From sequence record OL539447.1: a stretch of 48,301 bases of DNA, one strand, 5' to 3'. Position numbers and translations under genes: made by a program. Shown piece after piece: positions 10,692 to 47,858 of this stretch; the first letter of the stretch is position 1, and each line of letters opens with the position of its first letter. The notes under the pieces were generated by a model. That model searched no databases and was not told the origin of the DNA. It worked only from the letters and a program-made list of their open reading frames with translations. This DNA comes from Escherichia phage vB_ EcoD_Phleasolo.

Positions 10692-11112
10692 TGACGTTGT
10701 AAGTTTCAGGAACTCAATTAACGCATGGATTGATGGCGTCACTGATGGTGTAGAATTGATTGTGGAAGGCACGCTAACTAAGGCTGCCAACGACATAGTT
10801 AAGCTATCTCCAGTTGATACAGGTCGATTCAGGGGTAACTGGCAGGCCACTGGCAATTCACCAGCCGCACAGTCACTAAATAATTACGACCCTGACGGCA
10901 GTGAGACTCGTAACTCTCTTCGTAGGCAAATCTACGCACTAGCAAGAGATACAAATACGAACGTAATTTACGTTACCAACCGGCTTGATTATGCGCAAGG
11001 ACTTGAGTTTGGTTCATCCAATCAGGCGCCTTCTGGTGTTCTTGGTGTTGTCCAGAAGAGGCTTGGTCGTTACTTCGCCGAGGCGGTACAGGAGGCTAAA
11101 CGTGCACTATGA
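10684..11112 (+). CDS. putative neck/tail completion protein
   Basis: 142-aa ORF; positional inference. Confidence 0.3.
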   Translation: MANDVVSFRNSINAWIDGVTDGVELIVEGTLTKAANDIVKLSPVDTGRFRGNWQATGNSPAAQSLNNYDPDGSETRNSLRRQIYALARDTNTNVIYVTNRLDYAQGLEFGSSNQAPSGVLGVVQKRLGRYFAEAVQEAKRAL

Positions 11113-11500
11113 AATGATGGTAGCATCAAGAAAGCTGGTTAGCGATGCTGCGGTTGATATTGCCGGCGGACTACCAGTGGCTTACGAGAACTGCGGATTC
11201 ACGCCGCCCAAAAACGGAAGTTCATGGCTGAAGTTTGACTACACGGAGGTTGATAGTGTTACGTGGGGATTGCAGAGAACATGTCGGTATTACGTTGGCA
11301 TGGTTCAGGTCTCTATATTCTTTTCACCAGGTGAGGGTACTGATAGGCCTCGCCAATTGGCTGGGCGATTGTCAGAAGCTTTCGCCGATGGTACAATGCT
11401 TGACAGCGGATACATTTATGAAGGCGGTTCTGTGTTTCCTCCAGTGAAATCACAATCCGGCTGGTTCATTCCTGTCCGATTCTACGTACGTATGGATTAA
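11102..11500 (+). CDS. putative tail terminator / tail-associated protein
   Basis: GTG at 11102 lies 6 nt after a perfect AGGAGG; the ORF-track start at 10985 overlaps the upstream gene and looks spurious. Confidence 0.3.
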   Translation: MHYEMMVASRKLVSDAAVDIAGGLPVAYENCGFTPPKNGSSWLKFDYTEVDSVTWGLQRTCRYYVGMVQVSIFFSPGEGTDRPRQLAGRLSEAFADGTMLDSGYIYEGGSVFPPVKSQSGWFIPVRFYVRMD

Positions 11501-11514
11501 TTAAGGAGATTTAC

Positions 11515-12165
11515 ATGGCCCATCTTAGCAATGGCACACAAATTTTTTTGCAGGGTTCCAAATCTGAAGCGGTAGCCGTAACAGCTATCACTAACGCAGC
11601 TCAGCCAGTTATGACCGTAGCTGATGCCTCAACTTTCGCAGCTGGTGACTTCATTGTTGTTGAGTCATCGTCATGGTCTAAACTTTCAGAAAAACAGTTG
11701 CGAGTAGTAACATCAACGGATACAACAATTACCGTTGAAGGCATTGACACTACCGACCCGCTTCAGTTCCCAGCTGGCGGAACGGCATCGATCTACAAGG
11801 TTCTTACCTGGTATGAGATGCCTTGTGTTCAGGACGTTTCAACTGATGGCGGCGAGCAGCAGTTCGTTACCTATCAGTGCTTGGCTGATGACCGTGAACA
11901 GCAGATTCCAACCTATAAGTCAGCGGTAAATACGACCTATACGTTTGCTCATGAGTTCACCAACCCTATCTACCCGGTTCTCCGTAACTACGACGAGTCC
12001 GGCGCACTGATTGCGATTCGTGCATATGTACCAAAAGCTGGCGAAGTTCGCCTGTGGACCGGAACTATTGCTTTTAACGAAACTCCAAACGTTTCAGTTA
12101 ACGAAATCGAAACTGTATCCGTAGCAATTACGGTACGTGGACGCTACAGCTTCCTCGCTGCATAA
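11515..12165 (+). CDS. major tail protein
   Basis: 216 aa with RBS AAGGAG; immediately upstream of chaperone and tape measure genes; followed by a strong terminator. Confidence 0.6.
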   Translation: MAHLSNGTQIFLQGSKSEAVAVTAITNAAQPVMTVADASTFAAGDFIVVESSSWSKLSEKQLRVVTSTDTTITVEGIDTTDPLQFPAGGTASIYKVLTWYEMPCVQDVSTDGGEQQFVTYQCLADDREQQIPTYKSAVNTTYTFAHEFTNPIYPVLRNYDESGALIAIRAYVPKAGEVRLWTGTIAFNETPNVSVNEIETVSVAITVRGRYSFLAA

Positions 12166-12171
12166 CAATCA

Positions 12172-12196
12172 AGCCCCTTCACAGGGGCTTTTTTTA
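12172..12196 (+). terminator. rho-independent terminator
   Basis: AGCCCCT-TCAC-AGGGGCT hairpin plus T7 run. Confidence 0.7.
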
Positions 12197-12238
12197 TGTT
12201 ATAATTTCAACTCAAACAAACACGAGAGGATTATTTAA

Positions 12239-12553
12239 ATGGCTAAGTTCAAATTAAAATTAGGCGCACTCCCTGATTTCAAACTTCCTGTTAAGTTCCA
12301 GATGATCAACGGAGAAGAAGCTGAGGTTATTTTCAACGCCAAGCATCGTAAGGCTAAAGAGATTCAGGAAGTATTCCAGACTGAAGGCCTTAAGGACTTT
12401 GACTTTGTTAAAGAGATTTGCAGCGGTTGGAACCTTGAAGAGGAATTTAACGACGAGAACATCGAGGAGCTGGTATCTCTGTTCCCAGCATCCGTTCTGG
12501 CACTGACTAACGCTTACATGCAAGCTCTGGCGGGCCAGCGCGCAAAGGTCTAA
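12239..12553 (+). CDS. tail assembly chaperone (G-like)
   Basis: 104 aa; sits between major tail and tape measure genes. Confidence 0.5.
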   Translation: MAKFKLKLGALPDFKLPVKFQMINGEEAEVIFNAKHRKAKEIQEVFQTEGLKDFDFVKEICSGWNLEEEFNDENIEELVSLFPASVLALTNAYMQALAGQRAKV

Positions 12554-12870
12554 AGCGCGCAGTATATCTACAATACCAAAGAGAGCCAACGGACGCCGAA
12601 CTTGAAGCTATTGGCATGCGGCGTTCCGATTATGAAGATGAAGAGCCAGAGGAGTTATACTTCGATGATGACATGATGCTGGCATGGACTGTTTACCAGG
12701 CAACTTCAACTCAATGGCGTGTAGGTATGAACGGCGCTACCGGAATAGATTATTCAGTACTCCCTTTCCTCTTTGATGTGTATAATGTCAAGGACAAAGA
12801 GATGACTTTAAATGACTTGCGAATACTGGAGTGCAAAGCACTTGAGATGATGCAAGTAAGGCAAAAATAA
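12511..12870 (+). CDS. tail assembly chaperone -1 frame extension (G-T-like; expressed only by frameshift)
   Basis: The -1 frame is open from 12511 and overlaps the last 43 nt of the upstream ORF; no SD before the internal ATG at 12616; AAAG slip-prone site at 12544-12547. Confidence 0.35.
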   Translation, partial: RLHASSGGPARKGLKRAVYLQYQREPTDAELEAIGMRRSDYEDEEPEELYFDDDMMLAWTVYQATSTQWRVGMNGATGIDYSVLPFLFDVYNVKDKEMTLNDLRILECKALEMMQVRQK

Positions 12871-12894
12871 CCTCCCTTTGTGGAGGTTTTTTTA
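12870..12894 (+). terminator. rho-independent terminator (possibly partial)
   Basis: ACCTCC-CTTTGT-GGAGGT hairpin plus T run, directly before the tape measure start. Confidence 0.5.
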
Positions 12895-12904
12895 TGGAGG
12901 TTAC

Positions 12905-15883
12905 ATGGCAGAATTTGCAGGTATCACTCTTGGCGTTGACGTTCGCCAGGTTGACCAGGGCACAAAGTCCCTGCAAGAATTTAAACGTGCCAATGAGCAG
13001 GCTGCGGCTGGTGTTAGCGAATTTGTTAACGCTGAGCTAGTTGCGAAGAATCAGGCTCGCGATACTGCCAGATATCTTTCTGAGCAGCGAACTGCTTTCC
13101 GTCAGCTGCAAACCGCAATCGACCCAACGGCAGGAAAACTTCGCAAACTACAGGAAGCGGCTGACGCACTGGATAAATCCTTCTCCGCAGGAGTTGTTCC
13201 TGAGGCTGAATTCTACCGCTTAAGCGAGGCTCTTGAGACTCAGACTAACAGGCTTCGCAACTCACAGCGCGCATTGACTGAGGAAGGCAGGGCGGCAATT
13301 GAGGCATCAAAAGCCAAGGCTCAGGCAGCTACACAGGCGGAAAGATTCCTTAAGTCTTTGCAGGCTGAAGCTCAGGCGGCAACATTAACGCGAGAGGAGC
13401 TGTTAAAGCTCAGGGCTGCTGAGTTAGGAGTCTCAAGCCAGGCTGCGCCAATTATTGCACAAATCGGAGCAGCAGCTGACCAGTCCGCAGCGGCATTAAC
13501 AAGGCAGAGCCAGGCTTTGCAACGTTCCGGGCTATCTGTTGGCGCATATAAGAACGCAATACGCACACTTCCGGCGCAGATTACAGATATTGGAACCTCA
13601 TTGGCTGGCGGCATTCCAATCTGGTTAATTGCAATTCAGCAGGGTGGCCAGATTAAGGATAGCTTTGGTGGTGTAGCTAACACATTCAGGTTTGCGCTTG
13701 CTGCATTAAACCCGTTCGTTGTTGCAGCTGGAGCTCTCGGTGTTGCTCTTGGTGCTCTTGGGCTATCAGCTTATCAGGCTTATCAGAACACATCACAGCT
13801 AAACCAGACGCTTACCCTGACCGGGCAATCAGCGAACTTATCAGCTGCAGCGGTTCAGAACCTAGCAAGGAATGCTGCTGAAGCTGCCGGAGCTACTCAG
13901 GGTTTAGGCCAGGAAATTGCTAATGGATTGGTCGCAAGTGGAAACCGCACGGTAGCTCAGATTTCAATTATCACTGAGGCAACTGCGCGCTGGGCTACGG
14001 TTACTGGTGATTCAGCTGACGATATCGTCAAGAACTTCGATAAAATCGCAAATGACCCGGTCAAAGGGCTGGCTGAGCTTGATAAGCAGTTTAATTTCTT
14101 AACCGCTGGTCAACTTAAGTACATCGAGCAGATTAGGGTTACAGAGGGTCAAACTCAAGCTGTAACGGCCGCCACGAAAATATTTGCTGATGTGATGGAG
14201 AATCGCTTAACCAAAGTTGCAGAGTCGCTAACGCCGCTTGAGAGGGCTTGGGATAGCTTCAAAAACTTCGTTTCTCGGGTTTGGACAGATATCGGGAACA
14301 GAACGCTTGGCGCGCTAAACCTAATTGTAGACGTTGTTGCTGGCACTATTGAGCAGATTCAGTTTCTGATTGGTCAGGGTGACGTTCTTATCAACAACTT
14401 CCTGATATCGACAATCAAAGCATTCCAGAATATCCCTGGCGCTGATGGAGTTGGTAGTGAGTTGGTTCAGCAATTTGAGAAGCAAAACGAAGGGATAAAG
14501 AAAGCTAACGAGGAGTTAGTTAAGTCAGTAGCTGAGCGTGACGCAAGGATTCGTAAGGGTGAGCTTGGTTATGTCACCTCAACTCAGGAGGAGCAGCAAA
14601 GGAATGGAGAATCTGACGCTGAGTTCGAGAAACGCAGAAAGTCACGTGAGCAGGAACTTAAAGATATTGAGGCAGCGAATAAGGCAAGGAAGACTGGAGT
14701 TAAGGACCAGCAAGACCTTACTATCAACTATGAGTCAGGCGTCTTAGCTCTACAGGCTCAGCTTAAGGTTCTTCAGGAACACCGCCAGATTAGTGATGTC
14801 ATCAGTAACGAGCGAAAGCAGCTGTTCGCAGAAGAAGCAAGGTTTGCAATCCTTAATGAAAGGCTGGCTGATGGCACTATCACCAAACAGCAAAGGGCGT
14901 TACTGCTACAGCAAGATAAAATCTTAGGACTGGCTCGTGAGAAAGCTGAGATTGGTGACCAGATTGTTCTGCAGGAAAGGGCCAATAAACTCCTTGATGA
15001 TAACATCAAGAAGACTCGCCAGATTAACGCTGAAGCAGTATCAATAAGTGTTGGCGCTGGATTATCTCAGCGCGAAGCTGAAAGGAAGCGAGAGTTGGCG
15101 GCGCTAGAAGCCCAGCAGATTTCTAAAGGCGGCTCCGTAGATGACACTGACTTCCAAGCATTGTTGCAGGCTCGTCAGAATTTCTACAATCAGGAAGACG
15201 CATTACGTGGCAACTGGTTGGCTGGTGTTAAGTCTGCGTTTGCTGAGACGGCTGATGAATTAGCAAACTTCAATCAGATTGGTTCTGAATTGGCAATGAG
15301 TGCCTTCAATGGATTGACTGACCAGATTACAAACCTGGTTACTACCGGAGAGGCAAACTTTAAAGAGTTTACCGCTTCAATTCTGAAGCAGATTGCACGC
15401 ATTGCAACGCAATTACTTTTGATTAAAGCTATTGAGTCAACCATATCTAGTTTTGGTGGTGGCGGCGGCTCAACAGGTACAGCTATAGCTAACTTTGGTA
15501 AATCTTTTGGCTTTGCATCTGGTGGCTACACAGGTAGTGGTGGTAAGTACGAGCCAGCTGGCACGGTGCATAAAGGTGAATTCGTATTTACTAAAGAGGC
15601 AACCTCAAGGATTGGCGTTGATAACCTTTACAAGTTGATGCGCGGATACGCAAACGGTGGGGTGGTTGGCTCTGGTCCTGGCTATGCGACTGGTGGACTT
15701 GTTGGTGGAAGCAACGTTAACGTTGGTGGAGTGAATGTTACCGTTCAGACAGGTCTTGGCGGTGGTGGCGGCAATGACGCTAAACAGTTAGAATCTGGTA
15801 TCAGGGTTATCATCGCGGAAGAGATTACTCAATCTTTCCAGCAGGGCGGAACGGCTTACCAGTTCTTGCGTGGTTACAGTTAA
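12905..15883 (+). CDS. tail tape measure protein
   Basis: 992 aa from ATG 12905 (track start 12878 is a TTG inside the terminator); long coiled-coil region, hydrophobic segments and Gly-rich C-terminus. Confidence 0.85.
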   Translation: MAEFAGITLGVDVRQVDQGTKSLQEFKRANEQAAAGVSEFVNAELVAKNQARDTARYLSEQRTAFRQLQTAIDPTAGKLRKLQEAADALDKSFSAGVVPEAEFYRLSEALETQTNRLRNSQRALTEEGRAAIEASKAKAQAATQAERFLKSLQAEAQAATLTREELLKLRAAELGVSSQAAPIIAQIGAAADQSAAALTRQSQALQRSGLSVGAYKNAIRTLPAQITDIGTSLAGGIPIWLIAIQQGGQIKDSFGGVANTFRFALAALNPFVVAAGALGVALGALGLSAYQAYQNTSQLNQTLTLTGQSANLSAAAVQNLARNAAEAAGATQGLGQEIANGLVASGNRTVAQISIITEATARWATVTGDSADDIVKNFDKIANDPVKGLAELDKQFNFLTAGQLKYIEQIRVTEGQTQAVTAATKIFADVMENRLTKVAESLTPLERAWDSFKNFVSRVWTDIGNRTLGALNLIVDVVAGTIEQIQFLIGQGDVLINNFLISTIKAFQNIPGADGVGSELVQQFEKQNEGIKKANEELVKSVAERDARIRKGELGYVTSTQEEQQRNGESDAEFEKRRKSREQELKDIEAANKARKTGVKDQQDLTINYESGVLALQAQLKVLQEHRQISDVISNERKQLFAEEARFAILNERLADGTITKQQRALLLQQDKILGLAREKAEIGDQIVLQERANKLLDDNIKKTRQINAEAVSISVGAGLSQREAERKRELAALEAQQISKGGSVDDTDFQALLQARQNFYNQEDALRGNWLAGVKSAFAETADELANFNQIGSELAMSAFNGLTDQITNLVTTGEANFKEFTASILKQIARIATQLLLIKAIESTISSFGGGGGSTGTAIANFGKSFGFASGGYTGSGGKYEPAGTVHKGEFVFTKEATSRIGVDNLYKLMRGYANGGVVGSGPGYATGGLVGGSNVNVGGVNVTVQTGLGGGGGNDAKQLESGIRVIIAEEITQSFQQGGTAYQFLRGYS

Positions 15884-47675: not shown

Positions 47676-47751
47676 GTTCTGTTAGTGTAAGTGGACAGCA
47701 CGAAGACCTCCTAAGTCTTAGGTACTGGTTCAAGTCCAGTGCGGAACGCCA
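47676..47751 (+). tRNA. tRNA-Arg (anticodon CCT)
   Basis: Hand-folded cloverleaf: acceptor GTTCTGT/GCGGAAC (two G-U pairs), D stem GTGT/GCAC with GG loop, anticodon stem AAGAC/GTCTT with loop CT-CCT-AA, T arm ACTGG-TTCAAGT-CCAGT, encoded CCA. Confidence 0.7.
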
Positions 47752-47756
47752 AATAT

Positions 47757-47858
47757 GCTCACGTTGCTAATGTTGGCCTAAGGGTGGAGCTTATACCTCC
47801 ATAAAGCAATCACCAGATAAGTGATGTAACGCAGGTTCGATTCCTGCCGTGAGCACCA
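47757..47858 (+). tRNA. tRNA-like element, non-canonical length (identity unresolved)
   Basis: Canonical T arm GCAGG-TTCGATT-CCTGC, 3' CGTGAGC-A-CCA and a perfect complementary GCTCACG 102 nt upstream; two internal 5-bp hairpins; no clean D arm. Confidence 0.3.

Follow-up and report, generated by a model that had tools for sequence, protein, structure and literature searches.

Programmed -1 frameshifting in the G/GT pair of tail assembly chaperone genes goes back to work of 1993 and 2004 and is now textbook knowledge. In phage lambda, the shift takes place at the heptamer G_GGA_AAG (Levin, Hendrix and Casjens 1993; Xu, Hendrix and Duda 2004, 2013, 2014), as reviewed in PMC5009743. Kropinski et al. 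(2012, PMC3496638) have already proposed a G-T fusion for genes 30 and 31 of Rogue1, the closest published relative of the DNA studied here (~93% nucleotide identity over the G/T region), and the Stevie paper (PMC4319613) is also cited as a prior proposal or annotation of the frameshift. The GenBank record of Citrobacter phage Sazh (MH729819) likewise contains a joined CDS, named 'Tape measure chaperone frameshift product'. The locus described below is unusual only in its minimal slip site.

In this study we focus on Escherichia phage vB_ EcoD_Phleasolo (OL539447.1), of which a stretch of 48,301 nucleotides, referred to as the window, was analysed. This stretch is 100% identical to three records of Rogunavirinae (Drexlerviridae, T1-like), including Klebsiella phage vB_KpnD_Opt-79. 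An earlier note on this DNA had proposed that a programmed -1 frameshift joins its two tail assembly chaperone ORFs, and we report here the anatomy of the locus, its family assignments, the conservation of the two-frame layout, the selection acting on the -1 frame before any start codon, and the homology of the slip site to canonical heptamers. The two-frame layout, the purifying selection in the -1 frame and the homology to heptamers all support the proposal, and sequence comparison makes it very probable that the ORFs 12239-12553 and 12511-12870 are the G and T of a lambda-style chaperone pair, joined by a -1 frameshift at A_AAG.

Gene order and protein families at the chaperone locus

The features of the locus are the following:

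11515-12165, + strand: major tail (tube) protein gene (PF08813, 1.1e-71; PHROG 584), the upstream neighbour of G, as expected for G/GT
12171-12205, + strand: terminator-like hairpin with a T-run, 3' of the major tail gene, recognised in the sequence
Overlapping the hairpin 12171-12205, + strand: promoter-like site TTCACA-16-TATAAT, just 5' of G, recognised in the sequence
12239-12553, + strand: G, a tail assembly (tape measure) chaperone ORF in frame 2 (104 aa, 11.8 kDa), ending in ...ALAGQRAKV-stop
12511-12553, + strand: overlap of 43 nt, with the -1 frame open alongside the zero frame
12547-12870, + strand: T segment, the -1 frame as read after the slip (frame 1), GLKRAVYLQYQREPTDAELEAIGMRRSDY...MMQVRQK, then TAA 12868-12870
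12869-12896, + strand: terminator-like hairpin AACCTCC-CTTTGT-GGAGGTT with a T-run, in the gap separating the stop of T from the start of the tape measure gene, recognised in the sequence
12905-15883, + strand: tape measure protein gene (PF06791 TMP_2, 1.1e-57; PF09718 Tape_meas_lam_C, 2.3e-17), the downstream neighbour expected for G/GT

The earlier note had recognised the G/GT arrangement upstream of a tape measure gene, and the family matches bear this out, with the PF08813 tail tube gene followed by both ORFs and then by the PF06791/PF09718 gene. G matches Pfam family PF08748 (Phage_TAC_4) at 6.1e-37 and 127 bits (cut-off 21.1), its residues 1-103 falling on profile positions 1-123 of 124, and it also matches PHROG 569 and 17368. 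The T part matches PF08809 (DUF1799) at 9.3e-14 and 51.9 bits (cut-off 26) over profile positions 1-80 of 80. Moreover, the PHROG 17368 profile (213 positions) spans both halves, with G on positions 1-107 and T on positions 100-213. The GT fusion, composed of G residues 1-103 and the T segment, has 210 aa and a mass of 24.4 kDa. A search of the PDB returned no sequence relative of the G/T chaperone with a solved structure.

The positions of the stops confirm that the -1 frame is open from 12511 and overlaps the last 43 nt of the G-like ORF, as had been claimed: the frame is closed by TAA 12508-12510 and then stays open up to TAA 12868-12870. The start of G is preceded by the Shine-Dalgarno (SD)-like sequence GAGAGGA (-5.8 kcal/mol), and that of the tape measure gene by the SD GGAGG (anti-SD pairing -10.0 kcal/mol). 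In T1 and Sazh, terminators are annotated at the places equivalent to the two hairpins, so that terminator-like hairpins flank the chaperone pair in Sazh and T1-like relatives as they do in the window; for close relatives such as AKS96, AHS24 and Rogue1, the recorded features of the region around G include a promoter.

Coding in the -1 frame ahead of its first ATG

The start codon on which the separate annotation of T depends is the following:

12616-12618, + strand: first ATG of the -1 frame, taken in GenBank to begin a gene of its own for an 84-aa 'tape measure chaperone'

Between 12511 and 12615, the -1 frame contains no ATG, GTG or TTG. The 20 nt upstream of ATG 12616 pair with the anti-SD at just -1.5 kcal/mol and contain no Shine-Dalgarno sequence, in agreement with the earlier claim that the downstream ORF lacks a ribosome binding site at its first ATG. 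Indeed, 73% of the + strand ATGs in the window score as well as or better than this one. Ten of 11 neighbouring gene starts score from -5.4 to -11.6 kcal/mol, the other being the mechanical TTG start of ORF 8556 at +0.1.

A tblastn search with the fused 210-aa protein found 854 phage records in which a single place accounts for 80% or more of the query, and in every listed row at ~45% identity or more this place consisted of two or three pieces, hence of more than one frame. In all 47 usable loci the chaperone ORF ends in ...R-(A/V)-K-(N/V)-stop and the T frame is open across this end. Over the 22 codons that separate ATG 12616 from the proposed slip site, the family-wide pN/pS is 0.31 in the -1 frame versus 1.60 and 1.49 in the other frames, and these two other frames contain stops in 33/33 and 22/33 sequences within the same segment. 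The pattern holds within the clade that carries A_AAG (the A_AAG clade): the ratio of synonymous to non-synonymous changes in the 22 codons is 7:2 in the -1 frame versus 1:7 and 0:8 in the others, and the -1 frame is open in 9/9 loci. The earlier note had tied its proposal to conservation of the -1 frame in related phages, and both the shared layout and the low pN/pS show this conservation.

These data bear directly on the possibility that there is no frameshift and that T is made alone, as an 84-aa protein, from ATG 12616, either by weak SD-independent initiation or by re-initiation following termination of G, 63 nt before the ATG. Separate 'tape measure chaperone' genes are indeed annotated in GenBank for this phage, C119, UDF157lw and Sf12, the ATG is kept in Rogunavirinae and Braunvirinae, and the DUF1799 match begins at -1-frame residue 34, near the Met. 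However, in addition to the poor anti-SD pairing of this ATG, the aligned codon is Leu (CTN/TTR) in most relatives, and the first possible T start of relatives falls anywhere between -79 and +140 nt from the stop of G. Such a product would moreover leave out the 22 selected codons before the ATG, including the highly conserved LKRAVYL, in a segment where selection holds even within the ATG-bearing clade, and members of PHROG 680 and 17368 reach upstream of the Met. We regard this explanation as very unlikely. ATG 12616 is probably an internal Met of GT, and a separate 84-aa T may be an extra product, given the presence of this ATG in the A_AAG clade. The correct product of the locus, as predicted from these comparisons, is most likely a joined CDS of 210 aa and not the two separate 'tape measure chaperone' genes of GenBank.

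The proposed slip site and its surroundings

The frameshift reading places the change of frame at the end of G:

12544-12547, + strand: proposed slip site A_AAG, placed from the sequence and from positional homology to the heptamers of relatives
12551-12553, + strand: TAA stop of G, one codon past the slip codon

The zero-frame end of G reads CGC GCA AAG GTC TAA, which confirms the A-AAG that the earlier note had located at 12544-12547, one codon before the stop; a single sense codon (GTC) separates the slip codon from the stop. The stop of G does not adjoin the slip codon in the window, a feature that was counted against the frameshift reading. The overlap contains no canonical slippery heptamer X_XXY_YYZ, and C_GCA_AAG permits no P-site re-pairing. 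Across 11 genes of the window the in-frame frequency of A_AAG is 0.0045 per codon, so that at least one occurrence in the 14 codons of the overlap is expected with p ~0.06. By itself the A_AAG motif is weak evidence, and the case for a frameshift is carried by the comparative data.

The comparison with relatives revealed that A_AAG occupies a position homologous to that of a canonical heptamer. A_AAA_AAC stands directly before the stop TAA in 35/47 loci, including that of Sd1, which belongs to the same subfamily. At the same position, Webervirus has A_AAA_G, the Dhillonvirus-like Bas85 has A_AAA_AAC followed by TAA, and a Ralstonia phage has G_GGA_AAC followed by TGA. Read against this alignment, the A_AAG clade has lost the canonical heptamer and kept the tetramer A_AAG (GCA AAG GTC TAA), three adjacent substitutions with respect to Sd1 having removed the heptamer. 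The overlap sequence is identical in all A_AAG-clade loci read (e.g. C119, e4/1c, AHS24, phiKP26).

Conservation also brackets the frame switch. Relatives share the zero-frame residues as far as ALAG(Q/H)R(A/V)K and those of the -1 frame from LKRAVYL on, which pins the switch to two codons; the junction ALAGQRAK-GLKRAVYL ranks with the best conserved 10-mers of the fusion, and the -1-frame translation upstream of the slip site shows no conservation among relatives. Another route to GT would be a slip elsewhere in the overlap, such as at G_GGC (12532-12535), or slippage of the RNA polymerase. G_GGC is the sole other Z_ZZN tetramer of the overlap, and the run of six A in relatives would in principle be open to some transcriptional slippage. 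However, G_GGC is outside the six tetramers that gave at least four-fold-over-background frameshifting in E. coli (PMC4066793). A shift there would also swap the conserved QR(A/V)K for -1-frame residues that are unconserved in relatives. The site in the window has just three consecutive A, and polymerase slippage requires A-runs far longer than three. We give this explanation a marginally lower probability than that of T made alone from its ATG.

A search for stimulatory elements around A_AAG found none. In minimum free energy folds, shuffled sequences are at least as stable as 12544-12640 and 12500-12700 (z 0.95 and 0.00), RNAalifold found no consensus structure in 16 diverse relatives, and there is no hairpin with a loop of at most 12 nt starting ~5-9 nt downstream of A_AAG. 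In a crude H-type pseudoknot scan, no downstream pseudoknot of the kind invoked for Rogue1 rose above controls in the window (score 19 versus a control mean of 17.7; 62% of synonymous controls equal or better). The best SD-like duplex 6-17 nt upstream of A_AAG has -5.3 kcal/mol; it is equalled by 25% of synonymous-codon controls and is not conserved.

Two further candidates were set aside. The stem GGCGG-N20-CCGCC, noticed by eye in Tuna- and Tempevirinae 6-7 nt downstream of the slip site, scored 65.6% of cells with one covarying pair and is absent in the window. The hairpin 12590-12598 / 12619-12628 around ATG 12616 reached p = 0.14 versus synonymous-codon controls and is absent in most relatives; at 42 nt from the slip site, it is too far away for a stimulator. 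Where this hairpin lies, Webervirus forms a stem of 9 bp that differs in sequence.

These results raise the possibility that the frameshift signal has decayed in the A_AAG clade (A_AAA_AAC to A_AAG_GTC), that GT is produced below useful levels, and that the conservation of the -1 frame reflects recent ancestry only. The loss of the heptamer with respect to Sd1 and the outcome of the folds, of RNAalifold and of the pseudoknot and SD-like scans would fit such a decay, as would the weakness of tetramers alone: in E. coli, tetramers without a stimulator gave 0.147% versus a background of 0.112%, which is barely higher (PMC4066793). Against this, the open frame and the excess of synonymous changes in the pre-ATG segment hold within the clade itself, and the substitutions yielded the single most shift-prone tetramer and not a random sequence. 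Indeed, no other tetramer comes close to A_AA.G in promoting shifts in E. coli, where it gave as much as 5.6% when a stimulator was present, and A_AA.A_AA.C was rated 'low efficiency' in that host (PMC4066793), which means that the change to A_AAG need not have reduced output. Furthermore, GT of lambda is required for tail assembly (Levin 1993, Xu 2013, as cited in PMC5009743). Decay of the signal is in our view the least probable of the three alternatives, and scarcely credible.

Proposed mechanism and relation to known systems

In the mechanism that we favour, a programmed -1 frameshift at A_AAG, the majority of ribosomes translating G would come to the end of their frame at TAA 12551, yielding the 104-aa chaperone, while a minority would slip back one base at 12544-12547. 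The tRNA-Lys (mnm5s2UUU, single in enterobacteria) would leave AAG 12545-12547 and re-pair with AAA 12544-12546; there is no phage-encoded tRNA-Lys, and hence no competing tRNA at the slip codon. GGT (12547-12549) CTA AAG CGC... would then be read in the -1 frame until TAA 12868, giving the 210-aa GT with the junction ...AGQRAK-GLKRAVYL.... If lambda is a guide, the tape measure protein would be coated by G and by the G portion of GT, the T part would recruit the tail tube protein, both G and GT would be absent from the virion, and the slip frequency would set a low GT:G ratio. We infer the ribosomal nature of the slip, its exact location on AAG, its frequency and the assembly role from these comparisons.

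The literature searched contained no proteomic or genetic report on GT in the A_AAG clade. Trypsin is predicted to cut the GT junction into AK, GLK and R and so gives no spanning tryptic peptide; the predicted junction-spanning peptides are LVSLFPASVLALTNAYMQALAGQRAKGLKRAVYLQYQRE with Glu-C and AGQRAKGL with chymotrypsin. The -1-frame stretch GLKRAVYLQYQREPTDAELEAIG would in addition yield the tryptic peptide AVYLQYQR, obtainable solely from the -1 frame upstream of ATG 12616.

Our work adds a case in which a conserved G/GT signal would have been reduced from a canonical heptamer to A_AAG while selection on the downstream frame persists. It is relevant to the amount of signal that programmed frameshifting at a low level requires, and opens no new question. 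A bolder reading, which we consider improbable, is that the Rogunavirus lineage swapped A_AAA_AAC TAA for a bare A_AAG GTC TAA, with no detectable RNA structure or SD-like stimulator, and is still GT-dependent. If this were true, the frameshift level would be set by an unrecognised stimulator, for which the conserved nascent peptide ...YMxALAGQRAK in the exit tunnel or the GCGCGC repeats flanking the site would be candidates, and Sd1 versus Rogue1/Opt-79 (~87% identical genomes) would offer a clean natural pair for studying how the G:GT ratio is tuned.

Among Drexlerviridae relatives (e.g. Citrobacter phage Sazh, MH729819; Stevie, PMC4319613), the proteins belong to the same families, with 45-65% identity across the fusion, and the site is the same, at the last Lys of ...QR(A/V)K, with the same junction motif K-x-LKRAVYL. 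Sazh/Stevie-type relatives have A_AAA_AAC followed by TAA, several of them with the GGCGG-N20-CCGCC hairpin, whereas the window has A_AAG GTC TAA and no such hairpin. The Rogue1 paper (PMC3496638) left the slip site unnamed and invoked a downstream pseudoknot, whereas the site is placed here at A_AAG by homology to the heptamers. The A_AAG slip of IS3/IS1-family elements and of the dnaX type in E. coli (PMC4066793) uses the same tetramer, A_AA.G, and the same weak decoding of AAG by tRNA-Lys(UUU). Those cases are as a rule aided by an SD-like stimulator upstream, by a hairpin or pseudoknot downstream, or by the two together, and neither was found in the window.

As in lambda, two ORFs lie between the major tail and tape measure genes, the second ORF lacks its own start and overlaps the first in the -1 frame, and the proposed slip falls close to the 3' end of G, where tRNA-Lys(UUU) decodes an AAG Lys codon. 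Lambda G/GT is likewise not known to have a strong stimulatory structure. The lambda heptamer lies 5 codons before the stop in an overlap of 64 nt, whereas A_AAG in the window lies 1 codon before the stop in an overlap of 43 nt, and the heptamer of lambda is complete and allows re-pairing in the P site (GGA to GGG), where the window has the tetramer only. GT has 279 aa in lambda versus 210 aa in the window. The families also differ: lambda GT matches both PF06894 (Phage_TAC_2) and PF06223 (Phage_tail_T), the window having Phage_TAC_4 and DUF1799 instead. Sequence homology of the window GT to lambda G/T was looked for and rejected, with a best BLASTP E-value of 0.98 and a match to neither lambda Pfam family. 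GT of the window would work like lambda G/GT, without membership in the sequence families of lambda.

Layout of the chaperone genes and their flanking signals

The -1 frame ORF that follows the tail assembly chaperone gene G is open from 12511 and shares 43 nt with G, and the slip-prone A_AAG lies one codon ahead of the zero-frame stop, in both respects as the earlier note had claimed. In the following, T is the -1 frame ORF, GT the proposed fusion, and the site the A_AAG tetramer.

12171-12205: terminator-like hairpin AAGCCCCTTCACAGGGGCTT plus T-run, after the major tail gene
12239-12553, + strand: G-like ORF, ending ...CAG CGC GCA AAG GTC TAA
12511 to TAA at 12868-12870, + strand: -1 frame (T), preceded by a stop at 12508-12510 (ORF reading)
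12544-12547, + strand: proposed slip tetramer A_AAG, separated from the G stop by the single codon GTC
12869-12896: terminator-like hairpin AACCTCC CTTTGT GGAGGTT plus T-run, within the 34 nt that separate the T stop from the start of the tape measure gene

Pfam assigns G (104 aa, 11.8 kDa) to Phage_TAC_4 (PF08748; 6e-37, 127 bits with the threshold at 21.1) and the -1 frame product to DUF1799 (PF08809; 9e-14), the gene upstream of G to the Phage_tail_3 tube proteins and that downstream of T to the TMP_2 / Tape_meas_lam_C tape measure proteins. The order tube, Phage_TAC_4, DUF1799 and tape measure gene is that expected of the G/GT arrangement proposed for this locus. Moreover, both halves match the 213-position profile PHROG 17368 (G covers 1-107, the -1 frame 100-213), so that fused versions are already in the PHROG database. 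The predicted GT has 210 aa and 24.4 kDa.

The earliest ATG, GTG or TTG in the -1 frame is ATG 12616, which was said to have no ribosome-binding site. Indeed, the 20 nt preceding it have a pairing energy of -1.5 kcal/mol with the anti-Shine-Dalgarno sequence, and 73% of the + strand ATGs in the window pair at least as well; 10 of the 11 neighbouring starts reach -5.4 to -11.6, the exception being the mechanical TTG start of ORF 8556 (+0.1). Within the overlap the sole other Z_ZZN tetramer is G_GGC (12532-12535), and no X_XXY_YYZ heptamer was found across its 43 nt. The A_AAG motif alone is only mildly improbable: it occurs in frame at 0.0045 per codon in the window, and at least one in the 14 overlap codons would be met by chance in about 6% of cases.

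A strong promoter-like site, TTCACA-16-TATAAT (11/12 matches, with TG), overlaps the 12171-12205 hairpin just upstream of G, so transcription of the chaperone genes may start at a separate promoter and be partly independent of the tube gene. A promoter is listed here in several Rogunavirus records, and the T1 and Sazh (a Citrobacter phage) records annotate a terminator at the place equivalent to 12171-12205 as well as one between T and the tape measure gene. The latter terminator would not be expected between genes whose proteins work together, and it might set the ratio of these proteins.

The -1 frame in related phages

A megablast search with 11500-13500 found the entire query, at 100% identity, in vB_KpnD_Opt-79 (OL539453.1, a Klebsiella phage), vB_EcoD_Opt-719 (an Escherichia phage) and vB_EcoD_Sadiya, and matches of 87-93% identity in Rogue1, JK06, C119, e4/1c, phiEB49, Sd1, Sf12 and others, T1-like siphoviruses of the Drexlerviridae, subfamily Rogunavirinae. 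The Opt-79 record gives G and T as two 'putative tape measure chaperone' CDSs, the second beginning at the ATG equivalent to window 12616, and no joined CDS; C119, UDF157lw and Sf12 are likewise annotated with separate CDSs, and T is left unannotated in several relatives' records. Window position 11500 is position 10884 of OL539453.1; given this 616-nt offset and equal length, the window is a circular permutation of the deposited Opt-79 sequence.

When the hypothetical 210-aa fusion was compared by tblastn with 50,697 phage records, 1,145 were matched, 854 of them with a single place that accounts for 80% or more of it; among the listed rows, all those of about 45% identity or more have this place split into two or three pieces in more than one frame. 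We read 47 loci from Rogunavirinae, Braunvirinae, Tunavirinae (including T1), Tempevirinae, Webervirus, Kyungwonvirus, Nouzillyvirus and others. A -1 frame not conserved in relatives would have spoken against the proposal; the chaperone ends ...R-(A/V)-K-(N/V)-stop with the -1 frame open across the site in 47/47. The comparison of slippery sites, also suggested beforehand, revealed A_AAA_AAC at the equivalent place in 35/47.

Sequences at the slip site in the 47 loci
(GTA/GCA) AAA AAC TAA, canonical heptamer A_AAA_AAC touching the stop: 35 loci, most lineages, including Sd1 of the Rogunavirinae
GCA AAA GT(T/C) TAA: 3 loci, Webervirus
GCA AAG GTC TAA (A_AAG clade): 9 loci, the window, Opt-79's own record, Rogunavirus, Sf12, phiEB49

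The design is kept in two phages outside Drexlerviridae, the distant Dhillonvirus-like Bas85 (L057, PQ850624.1, 670-679; CGT GAA AAA AAC TAA, 10-nt overlap) and a GC-rich Ralstonia phage (L056, ON170267.1, ~790-800; CGG GGA AAC TGA, that is G_GGA_AAC), with KLIEAA... in the -1 frame after both sites. The Bas85 record annotates the T frame as fragments. One T1-like genome (L047, IMGVR_UViG_2974611450_000001, ~1388-1496) has a broken chaperone ORF with only 32 aa from the nearest ATG to the stop, which probably reflects an error in sequencing or a genuine pseudogene; its GenBank match, Shigella phage vB_SsoS_008, needed three tblastn pieces.

Every locus has K(K/G/S)L(K/R)RAV(Y/E)L... as the -1 frame translation directly downstream of the site, with third codon positions varying freely, whereas upstream of it conservation is confined to the zero frame (ALAGQRxK). 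When 31 distinct fusions were aligned, the junction 10-mers RAKGLKRAVY and LKRAVYLQYQ ranked with the best conserved in the whole protein. The Met of window 12616 is Leu in most lineages, and the relatives' first possible start codons spread over the interval -79 to +140 nt, with the G stop as zero point.

Over the 22 codons from the site to the position of the window's ATG, pS is 0.67 and pN 0.21 among relatives in the -1 frame (ratio 0.31); in the two remaining frames, where 33/33 and 22/33 sequences have stops, the ratios are 1.60 and 1.49. Counted over just the nine A_AAG loci, single-site variants in the -1 frame comprise 7 synonymous and 2 non-synonymous changes, and the corresponding counts for the other frames are 1:7 and 0:8. 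These patterns indicate that 12547-12615 is translated in the -1 frame and that the frame switch falls in the last two sense codons of G; initiation in the window phage cannot reach this stretch. Together these three points are the signature of a programmed -1 frameshift. The observation of the earlier note is confirmed and its interpretation supported: judged from sequence, GT is very probably made by a -1 ribosomal slip, and our confidence that the slip occurs at the exact codon AAG is somewhat lower.

Proposed slip mechanism and search for a stimulator

In the proposed mechanism, tRNA-Lys would shift from AAG (12545-12547) to AAA (12544-12546), the sole re-pairing possible within the last two codons (neither GTC to GGT nor GCA to CGC allows it), and the product would be a 210-aa protein with the junction ...AGQRAK-GLKRAVYL.... 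When all tetramers were assayed in E. coli, A_AA.G was best by far (Sharma et al. 2014, PMC4066793); with the IS3 pseudoknot six shift-prone tetramers, headed by A_AA.G, gave 0.26% to 5.6%, unstimulated tetramers barely exceeded background (0.147% vs 0.112%), and A_AA.A_AA.C was rated 'low efficiency', though IS elements use it. The three adjacent substitutions that separate A_AAG_GTC in the window's clade from A_AAA_AAC in Sd1 need not, we infer, have lowered output. The only phage tRNA genes detected by ARAGORN are that for tRNA-Arg(CCU) and an unusual tRNA-like one, so there is no phage tRNA-Lys(CUU) that would stabilise AAG decoding. The former (CCT, 47676-47751) is directly followed by the latter, a 93-nt 'tRNA-???' (47766-47858) with an abnormal anticodon loop, which may be degenerate or intron-bearing.

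No extra fold stability over shuffles was found (12544-12640, z = 0.95; 12500-12700, z = 0.00), nor a consensus structure among 16 diverse relatives (RNAalifold), and an anti-Shine-Dalgarno scan for an upstream element remained at control level. 'A downstream pseudoknot' is mentioned for Rogue1 (PMC3496638); crude enumeration of downstream pseudoknots, also at control level, did not reproduce support for one of this type in the window. Several Tunavirinae and Tempevirinae carry a GGCGG-N20-CCGCC stem 6-7 nt past A_AAA_AAC, the right distance for a frameshift stimulator (relatives L005, L007, L010-L014, L018 and L036; columns 14-19 and 40-45 of alignment A1). This stem, with one compensatory pair (G-C to A-U or U-A), forms in 65.6% of cells; the window, Rogunavirinae and Braunvirinae lack it. 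That an unrecognised stimulator makes up for the minimal A_AAG site seems to us improbable.

A singly bulged 9-bp stem, CGGACGCCG / CGGCGTTCCG (12590-12598 / 12619-12628; ATG 12616 in the loop), was rejected as a stimulator (p = 0.14 against synonymous-codon controls; absent in most lineages; 42 nt off the site). Webervirus has a 9-bp stem of other sequence at the same codons, CCGATCGCC / GGCGATCGG, with a borderline p = 0.03. Furthermore, GCGCGC 12538-12543 can pair with GCGCGC 12555-12560, as in the MFE fold, so that an 11-nt loop would hold the slip site and the G stop; in Sd1 the equivalent sequence is CAGCG...CGCTG. Such an arrangement corresponds to no known stimulator because the 5' arm would sit within the ribosome.

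Comparison with known G/GT systems

The G/GT frameshift is already recognised within Drexlerviridae. The Sazh record (MH729819) annotates 'Tape measure chaperone frameshift product' as a CDS in two pieces, and Kropinski et al. (2012, PMC3496638) proposed a G-T frameshift for Rogue1, which is ~93% identical to the window here; the overlap sequence equals the window's in every A_AAG-clade locus read. The finding is thus known in kind and already proposed for the window's clade. Our work adds that homology places the site at A_AAG, that selection on the -1 frame persists in a clade that lost the heptamer, and that this clade is the outlier in a family otherwise using X_XXA_AAC plus stop.

In lambda, GT binds the tape measure protein through its G part, as does G itself, and T recruits the tube protein; both G and GT are absent from the virion, and their ratio, ~30:1, matters (PMC5009743). 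By analogy, G and GT of the window may have the same roles. The lambda G/GT pair works alike, yet the window GT is not a sequence relative of it (best BLASTP E-value 0.98), and the Pfam families are Phage_TAC_2 and Phage_tail_T in lambda versus Phage_TAC_4 and DUF1799 in the window; the lambda site, G_GGA_AAG, has AAG as its A-site codon, as in the window.
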